64,000 nt of DNA. Origin: Candidatus Palauibacter sp. (lineage in GTDB: Bacteria; Gemmatimonadota; Gemmatimonadetes; Palauibacterales; Palauibacteraceae). Positions 2,089-35,649 of this stretch are shown here, piece by piece. Positions within the stretch are counted from its first letter, which is position 1. Each line of letters opens with the position of its first letter. The stretch covers positions 2,637,389 through 2,701,388 of the forward strand of contig NZ_CBDBZT010000003.1 in NCBI RefSeq assembly GCF_965213655.1, given 5' to 3'. Made by a program: the position numbers and the translations under genes. A model generated the notes under the pieces. The model ran no database searches. It was not told the DNA's origin and saw nothing but the letters and a program-made list of their open reading frames with translations.

Positions 2089-2520
2089 ATGCGAAAAGGG
2101 CCAGTGCGCCTCCGACTCGACGCGCTGTCCGTCATCGGGGCCTTCCTCATCGGAATCGGGCCGGGGACGGCCGTTCAGCCCTGTCCGAAGCATCGTGCGG
2201 CGCACGGCGACGAGCTGGAGCCCCGGACCGCCACACTCCTAGAGACGCATGCGGAGGCCGCCCCCGCACACAGCCGCGCGGGGCACGCCCACGCCGATGG
2301 CGCCGGCGCCAGCAAGAATTCGCATCCCCACTCGGGCGGACCGTGTGACTGTCTCGGCACCTGCCTGACCTGCTGTGGTCCGGCGCTCGTGGCCTCCTCC
2401 CCGCGCGCCGCCCAGATCACCTCTGCAGACTACGCATCGCGCGGGACGCGGCCCTACCTCCGGCTCGCCCCGGACCCGGCTGCCTACCTCAGACCGTTCG
2501 GCCAACCACCCCCCGCCTGA
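2089..2520 (+). CDS. Hypothetical membrane-anchored Cys/His-rich protein (putative metal-binding)
   Basis: TM-like N-terminus (ALSVIGAFLIGIG); HAHADGAGASKNSHPHSGGPCDCLGTCLTCCGP cluster; GC3 approximately 80%; start uncertain (first Met of the ORF is at 2053). Confidence 0.35.
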   Translation: MRKGPVRLRLDALSVIGAFLIGIGPGTAVQPCPKHRAAHGDELEPRTATLLETHAEAAPAHSRAGHAHADGAGASKNSHPHSGGPCDCLGTCLTCCGPALVASSPRAAQITSADYASRGTRPYLRLAPDPAAYLRPFGQPPPA

Positions 2521-2688
2521 CTCCTCGACAACAAACCGCACCGTTGCCCGGGAGCGCGACTCCCGCCGGCCAGAGGGTCGGCGTGCGTACGCGTGCCGGT
2601 CGCCGAGCCGATGCCCGCGCTCACCAGCGGCGGACATCGGTCGGCGCGCATCCCCAGTCGAACGAGGAGTCGAAAATTGAAGAAGTGC

Positions 2689-3699
2689 ATGACGTTCAGC
2701 GCGTTCGCGCTGCTGGTCCTTGCCGCACCCGTCGCCGCGCAGTGGAACGCCTCGCGCGCTGACAGCCATGCCCCCATCGGCGTGATGGCGGACCACCGCC
2801 ACGAGGCGGGCGAGGTGATGCTCTCGTACCGCTACATGACGATGACCATGGAGGGGAGCCGCATCGGCACGGATCCCGTCGCCGAAGCGGACATCGTGTC
2901 TCCGGGCGGGGGTTTCATGGTCACGCCGACCCGCATGCCCATGACGATGCACATGTTCGGGGCCATGTTCGCGCCGTCCGACCGCATCACCTTCATGGCG
3001 ATGCTCCCCTTCACTTCCAGTTCGATGGACCACATCACGCGCGCGGGCGGGTCGTTCACGACCGAGTCAGCCGGCATGGGTGACATCAAGGTAGGCGCCA
3101 TGATCGGCCTGGCCGACTGGGCGAACCAGTCGCTTCATCTGAACGCCATGGTCGGCCTGCCGACCGGATCGATCGACGAGATGGATGTGCTCCCCAACAG
3201 CCAGGGGATGGACGTCCAACTCCCCTACCCCATGCAGATCGGCTCGGGCACCCTTGATCTCCGCCCCGGCCTTACCTGGCTGGGCCAGGCCCGTGACTGG
3301 TCCTGGGGAGCCCAGGGCAACGCCGTGCTGCGCATGGGCACGAACGACCGCGACTGGTCACTGGGCAACAAGGTGCAGGGCACCGCCTGGTGGGCGCGGT
3401 TGTTGGGGCGCCACCTTTCGGCCGGGGTTCGGCTCGTCGCCACCCGGACCGGGAACATCGACGGGAGAGACGCCGCGCCGAGCGTGAACCCGCAACTGGT
3501 GCCCACGGCCCGCACCGACCTCCGTGCCGGCACCGTGGTCGAAGGAGGGCTGAGCCTCAGCCTCTACATCCCCCGAGCCAAGGCCTTCAGGGTCGCCGGC
3601 GAGGTGCTCCTGCCCCTCGTCCGCGACCTCGACGGTCCCCAACTCGAGACCGATCTGACCTTCTTGCTCGGCCTGCAGATCGTACCCGTAAGCCATTAA
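2689..3699 (+). CDS. Outer-membrane beta-barrel protein with Met/His-rich N-terminal region (CopB/PcoB-like or MetA-pathway 'transporter' family)
   Basis: Signal peptide MTFSAFALLVLAAPVAAQ; Met-rich motifs MTMTME, MPMTMHMF, MADHRHE; alternating beta-strand pattern; C-terminal aromatic-rich strands. Confidence 0.6.
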   Translation: MTFSAFALLVLAAPVAAQWNASRADSHAPIGVMADHRHEAGEVMLSYRYMTMTMEGSRIGTDPVAEADIVSPGGGFMVTPTRMPMTMHMFGAMFAPSDRITFMAMLPFTSSSMDHITRAGGSFTTESAGMGDIKVGAMIGLADWANQSLHLNAMVGLPTGSIDEMDVLPNSQGMDVQLPYPMQIGSGTLDLRPGLTWLGQARDWSWGAQGNAVLRMGTNDRDWSLGNKVQGTAWWARLLGRHLSAGVRLVATRTGNIDGRDAAPSVNPQLVPTARTDLRAGTVVEGGLSLSLYIPRAKAFRVAGEVLLPLVRDLDGPQLETDLTFLLGLQIVPVSH

Positions 3700-3925: not shown

Positions 3926-5179
3926 ATGTCCGACGCGCCTCCCGCATACGACACCCTGTCCACTCCAGCGGGCGGGGAAAACATCCGCATGGCGGGCAGC
4001 CGCCTCGACGTGCCCGACCGTCCGATCATTCCCTTCATCGAAGGCGACGGGATCGGTCCCGACATCTGGCACGCCGCGAGCGCGGTCTTCGAGGCGGCCG
4101 TCGAGAAGGCATACGGCGGCGCCCGCAGGATCGTGTGGTTCGAGGTGCTCGCCGGCCAGAAGGCGTTCGACCGCACCGGGGACTGGCTCCCCACGGACAC
4201 GCTGCGTGCGATTCGGCATCACCTCGTCGCGATCAAGGGACCCCTGACGACGCCCGTGGGTGGAGGGATCCGATCGCTCAACGTGGCACTGCGCCAGAAA
4301 CTCGACCTGTTCGCGTGCGTCCGCCCCGTGCGCTGGTTCGAGGGTGTGCCGTCTCCGGTCCGGCAGCCGGACCTCGTCGACATGACGATCTTCCGCGAGA
4401 ACACCGAGGACATCTACGCCGGCATCGAGTGGGAGGCCGGGAGCGATGAGGCCCGCCGTCTGCGTGCCTTCCTGTGCGACGAGATGGGCGTCTCGACGAT
4501 CCGTTTCCCCGAGACCAGTTCCTTCGGTGTGAAGCCGATCTCGAGGGAAGGGACGCGGCGGCTCGTCCGCGCCGCGATCCGGTACGCCCGCGCCCGGGGA
4601 TCCGGCAGCGTCACGCTGGTCCACAAGGGGAACATCATGAAGTTCACCGAGGGCGGCTTCCGCGACTGGGGCTACGAACTCGCCAAGGACGAATTCGGGG
4701 CGGAGGAGTTCGGCGGCGGCCCCTGGTGCCGGACCCCGGACGGGATCGTCGTCAAGGACGTGATCGCGGACGCCTTCCTGCAGCAGATCCTCACGCGGCC
4801 CGCGGAGTATGACGTGATCGCGACCATGAACCTGAACGGCGATTACATCTCGGACGCGCTGGCCGCGCAGGTGGGCGGGATCGGCATCGCGCCCGGCGCC
4901 AACATCAACTACGAGAGCGGCCACGCGATCTTCGAGGCGACGCACGGCACCGCGCCGAAGTACGCGGGACAGGACAAGGTGAACCCCGGTTCCGTCATCC
5001 TTTCCGGCGAGATGATGTTGAGGCACCTTGGCTGGAACGAGGCCGCCGACCTCATTGTATCTTCTTTGGGCGCAACGATAAGCGAGAAGCGCGTGACGTA
5101 CGACTTCGAGCGCTTGATGGACGGGGCGACACTCCTCAAGTGCAGCGAGTTCGGCCAGGCCATGATCGACAACATGTGA
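3926..5179 (+). CDS. icd: NADP-dependent isocitrate dehydrogenase
   Basis: Full-length match to prokaryotic homodimeric IDH ([39 protein letters not shown]). Confidence 0.95.
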
Positions 5180-26373: not shown

Positions 26374-26450
26374 TCGTGTCCTCTTGCGTTGCAAAAGGCC
26401 GGTCACCCAGGGGCGCCGGCCTGGAAATACAGCGATCAATTCAAGCTGAA

Positions 26451-26467
26451 CCGACAACAGTTATCGG
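26451..26467. promoter_or_regulatory. Imperfect 17-bp palindrome CCGAnAACnGTTnTCGG in the divergent suf / ADH promoter region
   Basis: ccgacaacagttatcgg; 78 nt upstream of the sufC start; in a locally AT-richer stretch. Confidence 0.35.
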
Positions 26468-26597: not shown

Positions 26598-27632
26598 ATG
26601 AAAGCGGCTTACTTCGAACGACACGGCGGCCCCGACGTCATCCGGGTCGGCGACCTGCCCGAGCCGACGGCGGGTCCGGGCGAAGTGCTGATCCGCGTGC
26701 ACGCGGCGGGACTCAACCACCTCGACCTGTGGACGCGGCGCGGACTGCCCGGGCTCACGCTGAAGATGCCGCACATCGGAGGGTCCGATGTGGCGGGCGA
26801 AATCACGGTGCTGGGGGATGAGGTGGAGGACTGGGCGCCGGGCGACCGGGTCACGGTGAACCCGGGCCTGTGGTGCGCCCACGACGGCTGCGAGTGGTGT
26901 GCCCGTGGCGAGCACCCCCTCTGCACCTCCTACCGCATCCTCGGCGAACACGTACCGGGCGGTTTCGCGGAGAAGGTCGCGGTCCCGGCGCGCAACCTGG
27001 TGCGGCTCCCGGACGGGTTCCCGTTCGCGACCGCGGCCGTCGCGCCGCTCGTATACCAGACGGCGTGGCGCGGCCTTCTCTCGCGGGGGCGTCTGGCGCC
27101 GGGAGAGACGGTCCTCGTCACGGGGGCATCGGGCGGCGTCTCCACCGCCGCGATCCAGATCGCGAAACACCACGGCGCGCGTGTGTTCGCGGTCACAAGC
27201 GGACCCGGGAACGCGCGGCGCGTCGAGGCGCTGGGGGCGGACCTCGTCATCGACCGTCTCGAGGAGGATTTCTCGCGCCGCGTGTGGGCGGAGACGGGGA
27301 AGCGCGGCGTCGATCTCGTGCTCGACAGCGTGGGGGCGGCGACGTGGGAGGGCTGCGTTCGCGCTTTGGCGCGCGGGGGACGAATGGTCGTGTACGGGGC
27401 GACGACCGGGCCGCAGGGCGCGCTCAACATCGCGCGCCTGTTCTGGAGCCAGACATCGATCATGGGGACCACGATGGGGACGCGCACCGAGTTCGAGGCC
27501 GTAATGGGACTCGTGCTGGACGGCACCCTCACCCCGATCGTCGATGACGTGTGGCCGCTGGGCCGGGCTCGTGCGGCCCATGAGCAGTTGGAGGCGGGCG
27601 GAGTCTTCGGAAAACTCGTCCTCGAGCCGTGA
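26598..27632 (+). CDS. Zinc-type alcohol dehydrogenase / quinone oxidoreductase (MDR superfamily)
   Basis: GroES-like N-terminus (GEVLIRVHAAGLNHLD), structural-zinc Cys cluster CAHDGCEWCARGEHPLC, Rossmann VLVTGASGGVS. Confidence 0.85.
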   Translation: MKAAYFERHGGPDVIRVGDLPEPTAGPGEVLIRVHAAGLNHLDLWTRRGLPGLTLKMPHIGGSDVAGEITVLGDEVEDWAPGDRVTVNPGLWCAHDGCEWCARGEHPLCTSYRILGEHVPGGFAEKVAVPARNLVRLPDGFPFATAAVAPLVYQTAWRGLLSRGRLAPGETVLVTGASGGVSTAAIQIAKHHGARVFAVTSGPGNARRVEALGADLVIDRLEEDFSRRVWAETGKRGVDLVLDSVGAATWEGCVRALARGGRMVVYGATTGPQGALNIARLFWSQTSIMGTTMGTRTEFEAVMGLVLDGTLTPIVDDVWPLGRARAAHEQLEAGGVFGKLVLEP

Positions 27633-27654
27633 CGCACCACGGGCTGCCAGGCCC

Positions 27655-29373
27655 GTGACGGCTCCGCGGCGCGGCGAGCAGTTCCGGAGCCTCGCGGAGA
27701 CCGCCTTCGACATCCTCGTCATCGGGGGTGGTATCTCGGGCGCGGCCGTCGCGCGCGACGCGGCCCGCCGCGGCTTTCGCACCGCTCTCGTCGAGGCCGC
27801 GGATTTTTCGTCGGGTACGAGCAGCCGTTCCTCCCGCCTCGTCCATGGCGGCCTGCGCTACCTGGAACACTTCGAGTTCGACCTCGTGTTCGAGGCGAGC
27901 CGGGAGCGGCGGACCCTGCTCCGGATCGCGACCCACCTCGTGCGCCCGCTGGAGTTCCACTTTCCCATCTTCCGGGACGGCCGCATCGGCCGGAGGAAGC
28001 TGGACGCGGGGATGTGGCTCTACGACGCGCTCTCGCTGTTCCGGAACATCGAACGCCACCAGATGCTCGATACCGAGGCCATGCTCGCCCGTGAACCGGG
28101 GCTGCGCGCCGACGGGCTCCTCGGCGGCGCACGCTACTTCGACGCCCAGGTCGACGACGCGCGGCTCGTCGTCACGACCATCGTGGCGGCGCTCGAGGCG
28201 GATGCGACGGTGGTCAACCGTGCCGAGGTCGTCCGCATCGACGCTTCGGACTGGCCGGGCCACCGCACGCTAGTGAGAGATGTGGAGAGTGGCCGGGAAG
28301 TGAGCGTCGACGCCCTCGCGATCGTCAACGCCACCGGCGCATGGGCCGAACAGTTGCTCGACCGCGTCGCCGCGGGCCCCGGCGCGCCCGGCTTGGAAGA
28401 GGGGGCGGCCTCCGCCGTGCGCCTCCGGCCCTCGCGGGGGACACATATCCACGTGGCGCGAGGGCGAGTGGGCCACTCCGGCGCTCTGATATTCGAGGCG
28501 CCGCAGGACGGCCGCGTGATGTTCATCCTGCCATGGCGGGAGGACCTGACCCTCATCGGGACCACGGACGAGTTCTTCGACGGCCGGCCGCACGAGGTCG
28601 CCGCCACGCCCGGGGACATCACCTACCTGCTCGAAGCCACTAATCGCCTGCTCCCCGCGTCGAAGCTGGGCCCGGAAGATGTGATCAGCGCCTGGGCCGG
28701 GTTGCGGCCCCTCGTCGCGCCACCCGCGGATGGTGCGGACGAGGGCGCCGTCTCGCGGGAGTTCGAGGTGCATCAGAATCCCCCCGGCGTCTTCACCCTC
28801 AGCGGCGGAAAACTGACCTCTCACCGGCGCATGGCCGAGGAAACGGTGGATCGTGTGCAGGCGTTCCTCGCGCCGGCCGGCGTGAAGGCGCTTCGGAAGG
28901 TGGACACGGACAAGGTCCCGCTCCCCGGTGCCCGGTTCCGGGATCTCGATGGACTCCGCCGCCGCATCCGGGCGCGGGCCCGCGGCCACGGGCTCGACCC
29001 CGCCTCGGCCGATCGCCTCACGCGCGCCTACGGGACGAGGGCGAGCCGGGTGCTCGACCTCATCGAGCGCAACCCGCAGCTCGGTGAGAGAGTCGTCGAG
29101 GAGAGGCCGCACCTTCTGGCCGAAGCGGTGTATTCGGCACGGAGCGAGATGGCCCTTCACGTCGAGGACGTTCTCTTCCGGCGGATGCGGGTGGGTCTCG
29201 AGACGCGCTCCGGAACGCCGGATGCGGCGCGGCGCGTCGCCGAAGTCATGGCCCCGGAGCTGGAGTGGACAGCCGCACAGCAGGCGGAGGAGGTAAGACG
29301 GGCGCTGACCTGCAGGGCGTTGGACGACGGTGCGATCCACGAGGTTGCGGAGTGGGGGAGGGTGGCCCGCTGA
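27655..29373 (+). CDS. glpD: FAD-dependent glycerol-3-phosphate dehydrogenase
   Basis: FDILVIGGGISGAAVARDAARRG dinucleotide fold; RLVHGGLRYLE motif; GTG start at 27655. Confidence 0.8.
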   Translation: MTAPRRGEQFRSLAETAFDILVIGGGISGAAVARDAARRGFRTALVEAADFSSGTSSRSSRLVHGGLRYLEHFEFDLVFEASRERRTLLRIATHLVRPLEFHFPIFRDGRIGRRKLDAGMWLYDALSLFRNIERHQMLDTEAMLAREPGLRADGLLGGARYFDAQVDDARLVVTTIVAALEADATVVNRAEVVRIDASDWPGHRTLVRDVESGREVSVDALAIVNATGAWAEQLLDRVAAGPGAPGLEEGAASAVRLRPSRGTHIHVARGRVGHSGALIFEAPQDGRVMFILPWREDLTLIGTTDEFFDGRPHEVAATPGDITYLLEATNRLLPASKLGPEDVISAWAGLRPLVAPPADGADEGAVSREFEVHQNPPGVFTLSGGKLTSHRRMAEETVDRVQAFLAPAGVKALRKVDTDKVPLPGARFRDLDGLRRRIRARARGHGLDPASADRLTRAYGTRASRVLDLIERNPQLGERVVEERPHLLAEAVYSARSEMALHVEDVLFRRMRVGLETRSGTPDAARRVAEVMAPELEWTAAQQAEEVRRALTCRALDDGAIHEVAEWGRVAR

Positions 29374-29830
29374 GGGGACGACCTCTCCGACCGGGTCGCA
29401 CGCTGTGCGCGCTTGTGTGGCTGACGGCGTCGTGCGCCCCGCCCGACGACACCTCCGAGTCGTCCGGGGTTCTGTCGGATTCCCTGCCGCAGGACGACGC
29501 CGTGCCGGTCGCTCCGCTCCCCGGCGACGGTCCGCCCCGCCAATACCGGTTGCTCATCGTAAACGCGCTCGACATCGACGCTTACGTCTTCGCCGCAGCC
29601 GGAGCCGCGAGCGTCGTGCTCGACACCGTACCCCGCCGGGACTCCGTGCGGGTGGATATTCGGCTGCGCGCCGACATCGTAAGCCTCGAGGCACATGATG
29701 CGCAGGGCGGGCTCCTGCGGACGATCGACCTCGCGCTGACCCGTGACACCCTCAACCGGTGGCTCATCGCGGCCAACACCCCCGCCGCGGGTGTCACCCA
29801 GGGGCCCGCGCGCGTCACCAATGGGTCCGA
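29352..29830 (+). CDS. Hypothetical lipoprotein (5' GC3-rich part of ORF-track 29265..30173; true 3' end unresolved)
   Basis: Lipobox LTASC after a GTG start overlapping the glpD end; high GC3 up to about 29830; beyond that GC3 collapses and no stop occurs in this frame until 30173. Confidence 0.3.
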
Positions 29831-29888
29831 GAGTTCGTTAATTAGTTGGGAAGCCTTATACTGTGGGAGCGGTCTGTGTCGGAATCGG

Positions 29889-29912
29889 GCGTTAGGTGCG
29901 GCGTTAGGTGCG
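29889..29912 (+). repeat. Tandem 12-mer gcgttaggtgcg x2 inside an AT-rich island (29838-29870), just upstream of a small ORF
   Basis: gggcGTTAGGTGCGgcGTTAGGTGCGggg; preceded by gttaattagttgggaagccttatactgtg. Confidence 0.5.
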
Positions 29913-29937
29913 GGGACGATGGAGGAGGGGGGACGCC

Positions 29938-30084
29938 ATGAAGAAGCTGAGGATCGCGCTGGCGCTCGTCGCGAGCATCGCGATGATCGTCGTCGGGCAG
30001 CGTCAGGTGGGCCAGAAGGACGTGCGGACGCAGAAGGCCGACATCCAGGGGGTCGATTCCGAGAACGAGGCCTTGTTCATCTAG
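29938..30084 (+). CDS. Small ORF (48 aa) encoding a hydrophobic-N-terminus peptide, strong SD
   Basis: GGAGGAGGGGGGA 4 nt before the ATG; GC3 about 96% in this frame, versus low GC3 in the overlapping long ORF frame; MKKLRIALALVASIAMIVVGQRQ... Confidence 0.5.
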   Translation: MKKLRIALALVASIAMIVVGQRQVGQKDVRTQKADIQGVDSENEALFI

Positions 30085-30169
30085 CGGCTTCGCCGGCTCT
30101 TCCGTCTGAAGAACCGTCGGGCACTCTCGCGTCGGACGGTGACGGAGGATCACAGGTGCGAGGCGCCGG

Positions 30170-31426
30170 ATGAGTCCAGTCAGGTGCGACATCTCTCGGC
30201 CGGTCGGCTCGCTGACTCGCGCGGCCCGAATCGGCCTGGTGCTGCAAGCGGTGGGTCTCGCCGCATGCACCGGAGAGAGCTTTGGCCCGCCGCCCCCGTT
30301 CTCGGATTGCTCGCTGCCGCTCAGGAACTTCACGGATGCCGGCTCCGAGCGTTCGAGCATCCCTGCGCTCACGAATCCGGATGTCGCCACGCGGCTCATC
30401 GCCCCCCAGGTCGGTTACGTCAATCGTGGCGATCTCGTGATCGGGCTCCAGTTCAACGACCAGCCCCTCGCCATACCTCTGAAGCTCCTCTGGTACCACG
30501 AGGTTCTGAACCTGCAGGCCGACACCGACCTCGCCGACCCGGATACGCCGGGAGAACGGCTCACCATCACCTACTCGCCGCTCACCGGGTCCGTCCGCGT
30601 CTTCGATCCCGCAGCGACGGAGACGCCCGACTTCGAGGTGTCCAACTACGTCCTCGACAACAACCTCGTGATGGACGATGGTTCCGGGACGCTCTACCCG
30701 CAGTTGACGCGCTCGGCCACCTGTGGCCCCAATGACGGCAGCAGGCTGAAGCGCGTACCGTACGAGTTGTTGTTGTACGGGGCCTGGCTCCAGATCTTCC
30801 AGGACACCTGGATCGCGACCCGCGCAACGGGGCACGACTTTCTCTACACGCTCTACCCGTACGGGAACTACCGGGACCCGGACAACGCTTCGCTCTTCTA
30901 TCCGACGTCGACCCCGATCGACCTGCGCCGACGGCCCAAGGAACGCATGGTCGGAGTCCCGTCGGGCACCGGCGGCGTCGCGTTCGCCATCTCGGATTTG
31001 AGGGAAGTTGCCGCGCGGGACCAGGAAGGGCAGAACTTCACCGTGTGGGCTGCGAGTGCCCGTGCCGGTGGAGAACCTGTGGTCGCGTTCTGGAACTCCA
31101 TCGCTCAGAGTGCGCGGATCTACCACGCGCGAGTCAACGGCCGGCCGCTCACGTTCGAGGTCGTCGACGGTCGCCGGCAGGACGTGGAGACGGGGAGCGT
31201 GTGGAACTTCGGGGGCGAGGCGGTGGCCGGACCGCTCGACGGCGAACAGCTCGAGGCTCACGCCGAGGCGTACCACGCCTTCTGGTTCGCGTGGGCCGCC
31301 TTCCAGCCGGACACCGAGGTATGGGTGGCACCGATTCCTCTCACCGGCTCCGCGGACTTCGTTCCGACGGACGAAGCGACGCTGCTACCGCCGGACCCGG
31401 ACCTGATCAGACGCCGTCCGCGCTGA
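30170..31426 (+). CDS. DUF3179 family lipoprotein
   Basis: Lipobox LAAC; WYHEVLN ... LTITYSPLTGS resembles the DUF3179 core. Confidence 0.65.
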   Translation: MSPVRCDISRPVGSLTRAARIGLVLQAVGLAACTGESFGPPPPFSDCSLPLRNFTDAGSERSSIPALTNPDVATRLIAPQVGYVNRGDLVIGLQFNDQPLAIPLKLLWYHEVLNLQADTDLADPDTPGERLTITYSPLTGSVRVFDPAATETPDFEVSNYVLDNNLVMDDGSGTLYPQLTRSATCGPNDGSRLKRVPYELLLYGAWLQIFQDTWIATRATGHDFLYTLYPYGNYRDPDNASLFYPTSTPIDLRRRPKERMVGVPSGTGGVAFAISDLREVAARDQEGQNFTVWAASARAGGEPVVAFWNSIAQSARIYHARVNGRPLTFEVVDGRRQDVETGSVWNFGGEAVAGPLDGEQLEAHAEAYHAFWFAWAAFQPDTEVWVAPIPLTGSADFVPTDEATLLPPDPDLIRRRPR

Positions 31427-32964: not shown

Positions 32965-35649
32965 CTAGAGCCCGAGCCAGTGCTCGAACTTTATGAGGAA
33001 GATATTGGTGGAGGGAATCCGCGCGATGTCCGTCAGGTCTTCGCCCAGGCGGAACGAGCCATCGTTACGAAACGATTGCTGGTCGCGGCTCCAGACGAGG
33101 AACACGGTCGACCCGGGCCGATACTGCCAGCGCAGGACCAGGTTGGACCGGAACGACTTCACGTTGAAGTCGGGGTCGCCGAAGCCGAAGTCCGCGGTCC
33201 CGTCTCGATTGGCGTCGACCTGGTAGAGTCCGAAGCCGTTCGCCTCGAGACGCCTGATCTCGTTCTCCCCGTACCTCCGGAACCGGTCCGCGAAGGCTGA
33301 AGCTCGCGGGGCGTCGACCTCCATGAAGCGGTCGTAGCTACCGGCGCTTACGAAGGGCTGCCCGTAAAATTGCAGGGAAAGGTCCGGACTGAACGTGTAG
33401 TTCAGCCGGGTCGTGATGGAGATCGTCTGCTGGCTCAGGCGTGCAAACACATAGTGCGTTCCCGTGGAGGACCGGGGCTGTGAGACGTACTGCCAGGCCC
33501 GTTCGTTCCACTGCAGGCTCGGGCCGATGTTGAACTGGAGACGGCTCGACGCCTGAAGCATGACGTTGGGCGAGACTCCCAAGCGGAGCGTCGAGGTGCT
33601 GTACTCCCCGCCGGCGTTGAAGATGGCTCCCAGCCGCACGGGCTTCCGGGAGTCCGTGAACACGCCGCCGAAGCTGTTCCACTGGCTCGGCTGATGGAGG
33701 GCCGGGCCTCCGCGCAGGGCCGTCGTGGCGAGGCCCGCCCACTCCTGGTTGAATCCGGCGAAGCCGTTCCAGAAGTTCTTGAACTGGAAGTTCCCGTTCA
33801 CGTTACCGCCCGTGAACTGCCGTTCGCCGCCGAACGTCCAGCCGGACCACGTCGCCGCGTTCACCCCCCAGTTCCGAAACGGCCCCTGGGGCCGGAACTG
33901 CTGGTAGCTCACCCAGGCCGCGCCCACGCGGTAGTCCGCGTTCTGCTGGAAGCCGAGATCGTTGGACTCGAAGCCGGGTGACCGGTTCTCGCCGAACAGT
34001 CCGAAGCGCCAGTTCCCGCCTCCGATCTTGGAGAAGCTGATGGTCGAGGTGCTGCCCGAGAGCCGCGTGCGGGTCGGGTCCAGGCCGACGTGCTCGGAGT
34101 CCGGGCGCTGCAGGTAGCGTACCGACGAGCGCTGGATGCGCTCGATCGCCTCCGCGCTCCCGCTCACCGTGCTCCCGATCACGTGGCCGTTGATCTCGTA
34201 GTTGCCGTTCCCGAAACGGTGGCGGAAGTCGATCCCTCCCGTGTACGCCTCGTCCGCCAGGAAGGCGAGCGCTCCCCCGGCGTCCAGGCGCCGGTTCGTG
34301 GCGGTGGCGATGAGTCCGACCGCGCTCTCCCCGTCGCGAAAGTCCCGGATTACCCGCCCGACGGCGTAGTTCGTGACCGGCTCCACCAGTTGCTCGCTCA
34401 GCGCCCCGCCCGGGGTAGAGAAGCGCGCCATCTCGCTCGAAGTGAGCGCGTTGAGGAGACCGACCGACCACCCGCCCGCCGTCTTCCCCGACAGCTTCGC
34501 CGCGCCGAGGATCCGCGTCGCTTCAGGCACCTGCTGATAGTCCGACGGGTCCGTGACGAATCCCTGTGGCGCACGTCCGACCCGCCGGCTGTAGAAGAGC
34601 GACTCGTTGTTCTCATCGTCCGGCGCGCCGATCGCGAAGTCGAAGATGTCGGCGCCCTCCTGGAAGAAGGGGCGTTTCTCGGGAAAGAACGTCTCGAACG
34701 CCGTGAGGTTCACGACCGACGGGTCCGCCTCGACCTGCCCGAAGTCGGGGTTCACCGTGAGGTTCAGCGTCAGGTTGTCCGTGATCCCGTACTTCAGGTC
34801 GCCGCCCACCGTCTGCCGCAGGGCGGTCGCGGAATAGAAGGGATCGTCCGCCGTTCCGGGTGCGCGCGCGGCGGACGAAAGGACGTAGGGACGGATCTCG
34901 AGGTTACGGCGCGGTCTGATGTCTTCGAGGTTCCGCAGCGTCCCGAATGCGGACACGACGCGCGAACCGTCCTCCGGCAGGGGCGACCACACGCTCGACT
35001 CTTCGAGGCGGGCGATCTCCCGCCGGAAGTTGATGCCCCATGTGCTCGAGCCGCCATCCCGCGCGGATGCCGTGAACCTGAGTTGAGAGAACGGGATCCG
35101 CAGTTCCGCGGTCCAGCCCGACGCGTCCGTTCGGGTGGCGCTCTCCCACACCGCATCCCATTCCGAGTCTTCCTCGGTGTCGGAGAAGAGAAGCCCATCG
35201 CTTTGGACCCCTGCCACGCTGACCGAAAAACGGAAAGCCGTGCGGTGGTCGAAATAGCTGTCGATCGCGACGTGGAAGGCGTCCGTCGTCACTTCCTCGT
35301 CGCGTCTGGCGAGCCTGCGGATGATCCCGCCGGGGTCGTCGTCGAACATGCGAGCGCCGATGTAGACCGCGTCGTCGGTGTAGAGGACGCGCACTTCGGT
35401 GCGCTCGCTCGCGGGCCGCCCCGGGTCCGGCCGGAACTGGACGAAATCGCGCGCGACCGGCGCTTCGCTCCAGGCATCGTCGTCGAGGCGCCCGTCGATC
35501 CGGGGCAACTCGGCCGCCCGAACGGCCGGAAGCGCCGGCGCCGCCGCGGAGCGCGCGTGGGTTTCCCCGCCGATCAGCGCATCCTGGGCCGCCAAGGGAC
35601 CCGCGGGCGCCATGAACAGAAGGAGCGTCGGCCACCGTCGCGGCGGCAC
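32965..35649 (-). CDS. CBM9-like / DUF5916 family exported protein (carbohydrate-binding-family-9-like N-terminus plus large beta-rich C-terminal domain)
   Basis: LPRIDGRLDDDAWSEAP...FVQFRPDPG CBM9/DOMON-like motif; about 890 aa; signal peptide PPRRWPTLLLFMAPAGPLAAQ; start may lie up to 35724. Confidence 0.65.
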   Translation of the reverse strand: MPPRRWPTLLLFMAPAGPLAAQDALIGGETHARSAAAPALPAVRAAELPRIDGRLDDDAWSEAPVARDFVQFRPDPGRPASERTEVRVLYTDDAVYIGARMFDDDPGGIIRRLARRDEEVTTDAFHVAIDSYFDHRTAFRFSVSVAGVQSDGLLFSDTEEDSEWDAVWESATRTDASGWTAELRIPFSQLRFTASARDGGSSTWGINFRREIARLEESSVWSPLPEDGSRVVSAFGTLRNLEDIRPRRNLEIRPYVLSSAARAPGTADDPFYSATALRQTVGGDLKYGITDNLTLNLTVNPDFGQVEADPSVVNLTAFETFFPEKRPFFQEGADIFDFAIGAPDDENNESLFYSRRVGRAPQGFVTDPSDYQQVPEATRILGAAKLSGKTAGGWSVGLLNALTSSEMARFSTPGGALSEQLVEPVTNYAVGRVIRDFRDGESAVGLIATATNRRLDAGGALAFLADEAYTGGIDFRHRFGNGNYEINGHVIGSTVSGSAEAIERIQRSSVRYLQRPDSEHVGLDPTRTRLSGSTSTISFSKIGGGNWRFGLFGENRSPGFESNDLGFQQNADYRVGAAWVSYQQFRPQGPFRNWGVNAATWSGWTFGGERQFTGGNVNGNFQFKNFWNGFAGFNQEWAGLATTALRGGPALHQPSQWNSFGGVFTDSRKPVRLGAIFNAGGEYSTSTLRLGVSPNVMLQASSRLQFNIGPSLQWNERAWQYVSQPRSSTGTHYVFARLSQQTISITTRLNYTFSPDLSLQFYGQPFVSAGSYDRFMEVDAPRASAFADRFRRYGENEIRRLEANGFGLYQVDANRDGTADFGFGDPDFNVKSFRSNLVLRWQYRPGSTVFLVWSRDQQSFRNDGSFRLGEDLTDIARIPSTNIFLIKFEHWLGL

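Follow-up and report, generated by a model that had tools for sequence, protein, structure and literature searches.

A conserved 48-codon reading frame overlapped by a lipoprotein gene without a stop codon of its own in Candidatus Palauibacter

MgrB, AcrZ and CydX are small single-pass proteins of the inner membrane encoded by short open reading frames (ORFs), and small single-helix partners are also known for transporters of the NSS family, namely MetS, the small subunit of the methionine/alanine importer MetPS of Corynebacterium glutamicum. The locus described here lies in a stretch of 64,000 nucleotides from Candidatus Palauibacter sp. (contig NZ_CBDBZT010000003.1; the whole stretch is called the window) and contains a 48-codon ORF which resembles MgrB, AcrZ and CydX in its size of about 50 residues, in an N-terminal MKK followed by a hydrophobic helix, in a strong ribosome-binding site and in being easily missed in annotation. 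A preliminary description of this DNA had proposed that a long listed frame (29265-30173) joins a real 5' coding part to an unselected tail hiding a genuine, strongly initiated 48-codon gene, and the comparative evidence agrees. The locus is read here as three separate + strand genes in series, coding for a lipoprotein, the 48-residue protein and a DUF3179 lipoprotein, which occupy frames 0, 1 and 2 (window coordinates modulo 3), each one base on from the previous. A rough probability of 0.8 is given to this explanation as a whole, comprising the loss of the lipoprotein stop codon, the deletion proposed as its cause and an accessory role of the small protein in the membrane.

The coding signal changes frame at about 29830-29900. 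In plots of the G or C content of third codon positions (GC3) by frame, the frame of 29265 shows 0.80-0.97 over about 29370-29850 and drops to 0.30-0.63 across 29820-30170, in agreement with the collapse described before, and the frame of ATG 29938 shows 0.83-0.97 over 29880-30090. The small ORF has G or C as the third base of 46 of its 48 codons (GC3 0.96), which bears out the value of about 96% reported for ATG 29938 to TAG 30084 behind GGAGGAGGGGGG, and the peptide quoted at that time is exact. Its length is 48-49 residues in all 24 distinct Palauibacter loci, a set formed by a scan of one genome per species (16 species-representative genomes with the ORF, complete chromosomes included) and by other look-ups, with at least three loci from a metagenome scan.

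Over the DNA of the small ORF the ratio of amino-acid-changing to silent differences (pN/pS) stands at 0.26 for its own frame, 1.1 for the third and 3.56 for that of the lipoprotein tail, and its variable columns at codon positions 1, 2 and 3 number 6, 3 and 14. The ORF accordingly has the properties of protein-coding sequence, a kept length and frame and purifying selection in its own frame alone. Silent sites of the small ORF have diverged by 0.105, against 0.22-0.36 in 41 of 41 same-sized windows of the neighbouring glpD and DUF3179 genes (windows taken from tblastn coordinates), and the leader 5' of the ORF differs between loci by just 8.6%. Leader and ORF, about 250 nt together, are thus more constrained than the silent sites of the neighbours, as would suit a gene that is well expressed and whose control region is tightly specified. 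Judged by these comparisons the 48-codon ORF is a real gene, and its low silent divergence and its GC3 are in keeping with strong constraint and probably high expression.

In a search of 5.8 billion proteins the small protein matches 14 clusters with 73-98% identity (E 1e-16 to 1e-20), all of 48-49 aa with the exception of one 63-aa gene call that uses an upstream start. Some of these clusters carry the name 'hypothetical protein [Candidatus Palauibacter sp.]', and the exact protein is RefSeq WP_420449494.1, also named hypothetical. More distant relatives were identified with a hidden Markov model (HMM) of the family against 1.84 billion representative proteins and comprise 13 representatives of 43-66 aa. 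The family consensus is M-K-K-x-K-L-L-x-A-L-A-A-S-x-A-x-I-x-x-G-Q-R, a polar linker of variable length and a C-terminal E-A/S-L/W-F-I/V, where A-S-x-A-x-I-x-x-G-Q-R and the terminal E-A/S-L/W-F-I serve as signature motifs. Its range is Palauibacter and related Gemmatimonadota-like metagenome lineages only. The related sequences agree with a placement of the window in Candidatus Palauibacter, a marine and sponge-associated genus. No Pfam or NCBIfam family was identified (threshold E <= 0.1 with the window protein and E <= 1 with 20 members of the family), the sub-threshold matches being to hydrophobic helices alone (DUF6903 and others); a PDB profile search with the family alignment gave nothing meaningful, and there is no paralogue of the ORF within the window. 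The tryptic peptides of the protein include ADIQGVDSENEALFI and QVGQK.

GC3 stays at about 0.8 after the TAG, and read-through of this stop codon was also considered. It was rejected because the frame past the TAG is the stop-poor frame one base behind DUF3179, because its translation is arginine-rich junk, and because distant homologues share the same C-terminus and end with TGA.

The ORF upstream of the small gene is a bacterial lipoprotein by its sequence features, a positively charged n-region, a hydrophobic h-region and a lipobox Cys. The predicted signal peptide is MGEGGPLRGRPLRPGRTLCALVWLTAS, followed by the Cys encoded at 29433-29435; the lipobox L-T-A-S-C was found where it had been reported, near the start of the frame, and a W-L-x-A-x-C motif is invariant in the alignment of the homologues (A6). 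The likely start codon, as judged from the sequence, is GTG 29352, which overlaps the end of glpD by 22 nt and has GAGG 8 nt before it; the one alternative, GTG 29415, is disfavoured because it would leave the signal peptide too short. The AlphaFold2 model of the long ORF from GTG 29352 contains a beta-sandwich of 7 strands (residues 63-139, predicted local distance difference test, pLDDT, 82-94) and falls below a pLDDT of 50 over most of residues 145-273. Foldseek of this model against PDB gave generic beta-sandwich matches only, Pfam and NCBIfam searches of the long ORF gave no family, and in the protein search the homologues of the long frame match its first part only. With a pN/pS of 0.35 in its core, the lipoprotein gene is functional, and on this comparative evidence the selected part of its coding sequence reaches to about 29780-29835.

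The lipoprotein gene itself lacks a stop codon. As stated in the preliminary description, its frame meets no stop until the TGA at 30171-30173; the TAA and TAG reported in the other two frames both exist, at 29839-29841 and 29843-29845 inside TTAATTAG and not at 29850-29858. The tail opened in this way runs over the promoter-like region, the 5' leader and, shifted by one base, the small ORF, and in the window ends at that TGA, which overlaps the ATG of DUF3179 at 30170 (ATGA, 30170-30173); ALGAALGAGTMEEGGR is an example of the peptide in the tail frame. The frame runs out of frame through the small ORF in 18 of the 24 loci, ending 158-308 nt past the small-ORF ATG, and in 13 of these 18 the stop is the TGA of GGAGCATGACAG, 20 nt 5' of the DUF3179 ATG. 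The window frame ends at the ATGA overlap because the triplet at this position is TCA and not TGA. Exceptions are five loci where different lesions stop the frame before the small ORF: L009 and L036 with a TAG at -106, L010 with a TAA given by a 14-nt insertion, L011 with a TAG at -33 given by a 1-nt deletion, and L024. In the last locus, L001 (protein P0001), the lipoprotein is fused in frame with the small protein, and P0018 is a further fusion protein.

A sequencing or assembly frameshift, one of the two possibilities raised before, would place the true end of the lipoprotein at TAA 29839 or TAG 29843, and one protein, P0002 of L010, does end there (...GPRVR, at the TAA of GTTCGTTAA). This locus gets to the TAA only via its insertion (gtcacctccaacgt), however, which the others do not have, and the stop-less frame is present in 18 of 24 distinct loci from independent assemblies, among them the complete chromosomes OZ242312, OY762926 and NZ_OZ244907, as well as in the nearest relative (L033, 93% identical), which also reads through. 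As the stop-less state recurs to this extent, sequencing error is excluded and the probability left to this explanation is close to nil; unusual termination, the other possibility raised, was the right branch. A programmed frameshift at the 3' end of the gene was not indicated either, L010 being the sole locus to end at the TAA of the +1 frame and doing so by its insertion; no slippery motif was seen on reading 29800-29845, a region read without a formal search.

Most genomes of the genus have this frame open, and in the window it ends exactly at the start of DUF3179 (ATGA), two features that would suit a true dual-coding gene with a functional protein of 273-302 aa overlapping the small gene. 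This is very improbable, given the pN/pS of 3.56 in the tail frame, the tail GC3 of 0.3-0.6, the predicted disorder of the tail, the 6 of 24 loci where the frame is broken or changed, and L020 and L022, where the tail peptide is rewritten between two compensating indels. Openness is in any case expected from the GC3 bias. The tail frame lies one base behind that of the small gene, so that a stop in it needs T at a third position of the small gene, where 96% of the bases are G or C, and it stays open without the need for selection; the short GC-rich spacers are likewise open in two or three frames in most loci. On this comparison the tail, of about 110 residues, is a by-product without selection at the protein level. 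Orthologous lipoprotein ORFs that extend over this region were indeed found, which is one half of what had been named as able to overturn the reading, the other half being a small ORF that is not conserved. The reading stands, because no constraint on amino acids acts on the extension and conservation of the small ORF is strong.

The region in front of the small gene comprises an AT-rich island (29829-29868) where 30-nt windows have a GC of 0.40 or less, with a minimum of 0.37. It had been described as the only AT-rich bases for kilobases, which holds within about +/-3 kb, the nearest other such windows being at 26421-26465 and 32977-33019; the 64 kb have 12 such regions. The island is formed by two hexamers. 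TTCGTTA and TATAyT are invariant across 18 loci and the sequence between them is variable; their spacing is fixed at 17 nt among 17 close relatives, with the exception of L010 (18 nt). Invariant hexamers, fixed spacing and a variable spacer are the pattern expected of -35 and -10 elements, and the window contains TTCGTT-N16-18-TATANT a single time, whereas 100 shuffles do not contain it. The small gene probably has its own promoter in this island, and the dedicated promoter suggested before is plausible. A scan for intrinsic terminators gave no sites.

The operator suggested together with the promoter fares worse. The tandem 12-mer is present twice, as reported, and nowhere else in the window; one copy is gone in L017 (from the alignment) and L035 (from the lengths), and the pair is altered by a 3-nt deletion in L009, by a 1-nt deletion in L011 and by other differences in L024. 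An operator formed by the repeat is therefore not supported, as the pair is not consistently kept among relatives. The GGCGUU of the repeat is complementary to GACGCC just 5' of the AUG in the consensus fold of the leader, which is weak (-9.3 kcal/mol) and whose pairs are invariant, hence without covariation.

A third conserved element, GTCACC, sits where the lipoprotein ORF is otherwise variable, in its C-terminal end, and in two distant loci, L025 and L026, GTGTCACG is likewise found 5' of the small ORF. The form GTGTCAC(C/G) is kept 5' of the small gene even in distant relatives and in L025 is part of an inverted repeat, GTCAC-N8-GTGAC. It may be the binding site of a regulator.

The features of the locus are listed in Table 1. 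The GC of the window is 68%. The ORF listed as glpD overlaps the end of the zinc-type alcohol dehydrogenase (ADH) gene by 89 nt (27544-27632), and its true start probably lies 3' of 27544, because the family models match from residue 52 only and the relatives are called at 571-612 aa. The AT-rich patch at 26421-26465 (30-nt GC minimum 0.37) lies about 130-180 nt 5' of the ADH gene and may be the promoter of an ADH-glpD-lipoprotein unit; the TTCGTT...TATAyT motif is not present in this patch.

Table 1. Features of the locus, in window coordinates.
Feature	Position	Strand	Evidence or remark
Zinc-type alcohol dehydrogenase (ADH)	26598-27632		Upstream of the lipoprotein gene
Glycerol-3-phosphate dehydrogenase (glpD)	27544-29373		Directly 5' of the lipoprotein gene
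Lipoprotein gene, selected coding part	29352..29835	+	GC3 0.8-0.97; homologues P0001-P0003; core pN/pS 0.35
Beta-sandwich core of the lipoprotein	~29529-29777	+	AlphaFold2 model
Invariant GTCACC (GTGTCACC in most relatives)	29814..29819	+	Alignment A2; 5' of the promoter-like motif
Promoter-like motif: TTCGTT (29834-29839), 17-nt spacer, TATACT (29857-29862)	29834..29862	+	Forms the AT-rich island
Read-through tail of the lipoprotein frame	29836..30173	+	GC3 0.30-0.63; pN/pS 3.56 over the small ORF; low pLDDT
Tandem repeat GGCGTTAGGTGC x2	29888..29911	+	Presumed 5' leader; as the 12-mer GCGTTAGGTGCG at 29889 and 29901
Shine-Dalgarno-like run GGAGGAGGGGGG	29921-29932	+	5 nt 5' of ATG 29938; nearly invariant in alignment A2
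48-residue protein gene, MKKLRIALALVASIAMIVVGQRQVGQKDVRTQKADIQGVDSENEALFI	29938..30084 (ATG to TAG)	+	Conservation, pN/pS, GC3
Spacer with predicted RNA structure	30087..30164	+	RNAalifold consensus
DUF3179 gene, 418 aa	30170..31426	+	Pfam PF11376, E = 6e-54; own lipobox GLAAC; conserved 3' neighbour of the small gene

For most relatives the alignment with the DUF3179 protein begins at residue 1 of the N-terminus. Members of DUF3179 that are selenoproteins with a UxxC/T motif have been listed (PMC9312934). In a distant relative of 60% GC (L026:3961-5313, 4001-4159) the signal peptide and lipobox of DUF3179 (IRGVPLVALFAAC) start right at the stop codon of the small ORF (CAUCUGAUU), with no ATG, GTG or TTG at that point. 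The DUF3179 frame of this locus is open over the entire small ORF, and gene callers cut the protein to 322 or 338 aa. This arrangement suggests a non-canonical or a reinitiation start.

Gene order in relatives outside Palauibacter gives an indication of how the stop codon was lost. The order in L003 is ADH, GlpD, lipoprotein and SNF transporter. L030 and L031 present a lipoprotein homologue (59% identical), SNF, the small ORF, CDGSH (minus strand) and DUF3179, and L032 a lipoprotein homologue (46% identical), SNF and the small ORF, with a minus-strand M20 peptidase gene in the place of DUF3179. In L026 the order is ADH, SNF, small ORF and DUF3179, and in L041 it is SNF, small ORF, CDGSH and DUF3179. 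Palauibacter lacks SNF at this locus, and no SNF, CDGSH or M20 gene was identified within the 64-kb window. The lipoprotein homologue of L032 ends 6 residues past an N-R-W-x-I-A motif, whose equivalent in the window is at about 29765. From these orders, the stop was probably lost in a deletion, which would have removed SNF as well as the end of the lipoprotein gene and left the lipoprotein frame abutting on the region upstream of the small gene. The invariant GTCACC, located in the variable lipoprotein end and also 5' of the small ORF in L025 and L026, fits such a joining.

The small protein has an N-terminal hydrophobic helix followed by a polar tail of 28 residues with a conserved LFI/WFI end. 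Residues 6-20 (IALALVASIAMIVVG) follow MKKLR and are helical in the AlphaFold2 model with a pLDDT of about 80; the model is one long helix, confident over the hydrophobic N-terminal 20 residues only and low in the tail. From this topology the protein most likely spans the inner membrane once, its N-terminus facing the cytoplasm and its polar tail the periplasm, and cleavage of the N-terminus as a signal peptide is possible. Judged from topology and gene neighbourhood, it would most likely serve as a small accessory subunit of an envelope protein encoded nearby, which could be DUF3179 or a transporter of the SNF type.

The transporter side of this proposal has a stricter form, that the protein belongs to an SNF/NSS transporter as a small subunit of the MetS kind and is kept for an SNF gene elsewhere in the genome. 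The gene is found directly 3' of SNF in all four distinct contexts outside Palauibacter with upstream sequence (L025, L026, L030 and L032) and also in L041, a position that would suit a partner of this kind. SNF and the small gene are separated there by gaps of 160-380 nt with AT-rich promoter-like DNA, however, no Pfam or NCBIfam model matches at E <= 0.1-1, and the gene is strongly constrained at this locus, yet the window has no SNF gene. A MetS-like subunit is therefore improbable. Membership of the MetS family as such was rejected, as the model test failed and the window contains no SNF gene.

The spacer that separates the small gene from DUF3179 is predicted to be structured. In the RNAalifold consensus GCUUCGC (30087-30093) can pair with GCGAGGC (30158-30164), which is the Shine-Dalgarno region of DUF3179, around an inner hairpin (30113-30118 with 30135-30140), and in the minimum-energy fold of the window sequence UUCAUCU at the end of the small ORF (30076-30082) pairs with GGAUGAG at the DUF3179 start (30168-30174). 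The minimum free energy is -54.3 kcal/mol (z = -2.0). A similar closing helix was identified in L024, L012 and L010 and not in L009 or L013; 93% of the cells are paired, only 3 cells have two-sided changes, and 18 of 500 shuffles reach the covariation score, so that the sequences are compatible with the structure but show too little covariation to establish it. An Rfam scan of 29300-30400 (E <= 10) gave nothing relevant, its sole match being Guanidine-II at 29370-29409 with 13.6 bits, against a gathering score of 32, and E = 6.6. With this predicted pairing, it is reasonable to hypothesise that DUF3179 translation is coupled to the small ORF.

The spacer also harbours mobile sequence in some relatives. 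A palindromic element resembling a miniature inverted-repeat transposable element (CAGCCCGTGGCAAAACCCCGCG ... CGCAGCGGGGCTTTTGCCACGGGCTGCCAGG) lies right after the small-ORF stop in two loci (L014:3148-3320 and L019:3148-3235) and is not present in the window. A related piece of about 44 nt (GCAGGGGTTTTTCCACGGGCTG...) is located inside the first DUF3179 codons in L019 and L021 (alignment A3), and the hairpin remnants CAGCCCG...CGGGCTG were found at the same spot in L010, L017, L018, L020 and L022.

The same structure could be read as part of a regulatory leader, where the small ORF codes for a translation-arrest peptide controlling DUF3179 through the spacer. In favour of such a peptide are the N-terminal membrane-targeting helix and the conserved E-A/S-L/W-F-I end; moreover, the end of the ORF and an anti-Shine-Dalgarno segment are predicted to pair with the Shine-Dalgarno sequence and AUG of DUF3179, and in L026 the DUF3179 frame abuts the small-ORF stop codon. 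Conservation extends over the entire peptide, however, and not just its end; helix and C-terminus are just 28 residues apart and, with the established length of the ribosomal exit tunnel, a terminal stall would leave the helix still within the tunnel. Moreover, the next gene is on the opposite strand in L030, L031, L032, L025 and L041, the length of the spacer varies from 46 to 268 nt and its covariation is weak. A leader function is for these reasons unlikely. An arrest peptide of the SecM, MifM or VemP type was discarded as a candidate, given the 28-residue linker and a downstream gene that is DUF3179 or an opposite-strand gene (L025, L030, L032, L041).

Several observations weigh against parts of the explanation preferred here. 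The deletion history is based on gene order in a handful of relatives. A strict sigma-70 consensus scan found no promoter, and TTCGTT matches the -35 consensus TTGACA at 2 of 6 positions, which is poor, compared with 5 of 6 for TATACT against the -10 consensus TATAAT. As to a partner for the small protein, only some distant relatives have DUF3179 next to it, and SNF is its neighbour in those relatives but is missing from the window. Finally, the lengths of the spacer follow a pattern that would be unexpected for an unselected non-coding sequence. They form 13 classes between 46 and 268 nt (window 30085-30169, L001, L009-L024 and L033-L040), 10 of which are 1 modulo 3 (46, 85, 88, 97, 100, 103, 106, 121, 181 and 268 nt) with 104, 113 and 114 nt as exceptions. 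Of 12 net length changes placed on a neighbour-joining tree, about 9 are multiples of three (binomial about 0.004 at p = 1/3), and 7 of 9 in the read-through lineages alone (about 0.008), figures to be taken with triplet slippage in GGC-rich DNA and the small sample in mind. Among these changes are indels of +13 and -4 that compensate each other, in L020 and L022, and two palindromic mobile-element insertions of 84 and 171 nt. The pattern hints that the phase of something translated across the spacer matters.

The spacer lengths give limited support to a further proposal, that the stop-less tail is deliberately kept in phase as a conduit for ribosomes. Ribosomes from the glpD-lipoprotein transcript would read over the small gene in the frame that is poor in stops and be released at the TGA, which in the window overlaps the start of DUF3179 and in most relatives precedes it by 20 nt; termination there would couple the translation of DUF3179 to the upstream operon. 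On the short transcript from the internal promoter DUF3179 would instead be coupled to the small gene, by melting of the pairing of the ORF end or the anti-Shine-Dalgarno segment with the Shine-Dalgarno sequence and AUG. Such a function of the tail is unlikely, and the tail continues to be regarded as a by-product of the lost stop.

The arrangement has consequences for the annotation of the whole genus. In L033, L034, L035 and L037 the 48-residue gene is called and the lipoprotein gene is not, leaving a gap of about 550 nt after glpD (about 2440-3000), and other public gene calls fuse the lipoprotein ORF to the small gene or extend it over it (P0001, P0018). Pipelines thus lose one gene or the other, and the corrected gene model repairs both errors. 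The small gene is already public as a hypothetical protein, and the locus, a small gene hidden under a stop-less neighbour, is ordinary in kind and mainly an annotation trap. The small gene defines a family of predicted small membrane proteins without a Pfam or NCBIfam model, in a conserved SNF/CDGSH/DUF3179 neighbourhood, whose hosts are marine and sponge-associated Gemmatimonadota. The locus is also a natural example of how a very high GC3 lets an upstream frame run over the next gene once its stop is lost, and it can be useful for training gene finders on high-GC genomes.

Compared with known systems, the extended lipoprotein frame resembles the spurious or 'shadow' ORFs of high-GC genomes, where the frame one base behind a high-GC3 gene is nearly stop-free, and the same trap is present in L026, where the DUF3179 frame covers the small ORF. 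Unlike a shadow ORF, the extended frame belongs to a real, selected, stop-less gene, and ribosomes starting there presumably translate the tail. The overlap of TGA 30171-30173 with ATG 30170 is similar to stop/start overlaps of the ATGA type, most relatives having the TGA 20 nt 5' of the ATG; it differs from ATGA operon coupling in that the 'gene' which ends at the overlap is a tail under no selection that has passed over another gene, and coupling is hypothetical. Like MetS, the product is a one-helix small protein encoded, in relatives, just 3' of an SNF/NSS gene, but it has no HMM match, a long spacer with a promoter-like region follows SNF, and SNF is absent from this locus and from the window. 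With MgrB, AcrZ and CydX there is no sequence relationship, the family being lineage-restricted and having a GQR after the helix and the C-terminal E-A/S-L/W-F-I; as in those proteins, the small protein probably works by binding a larger envelope protein.

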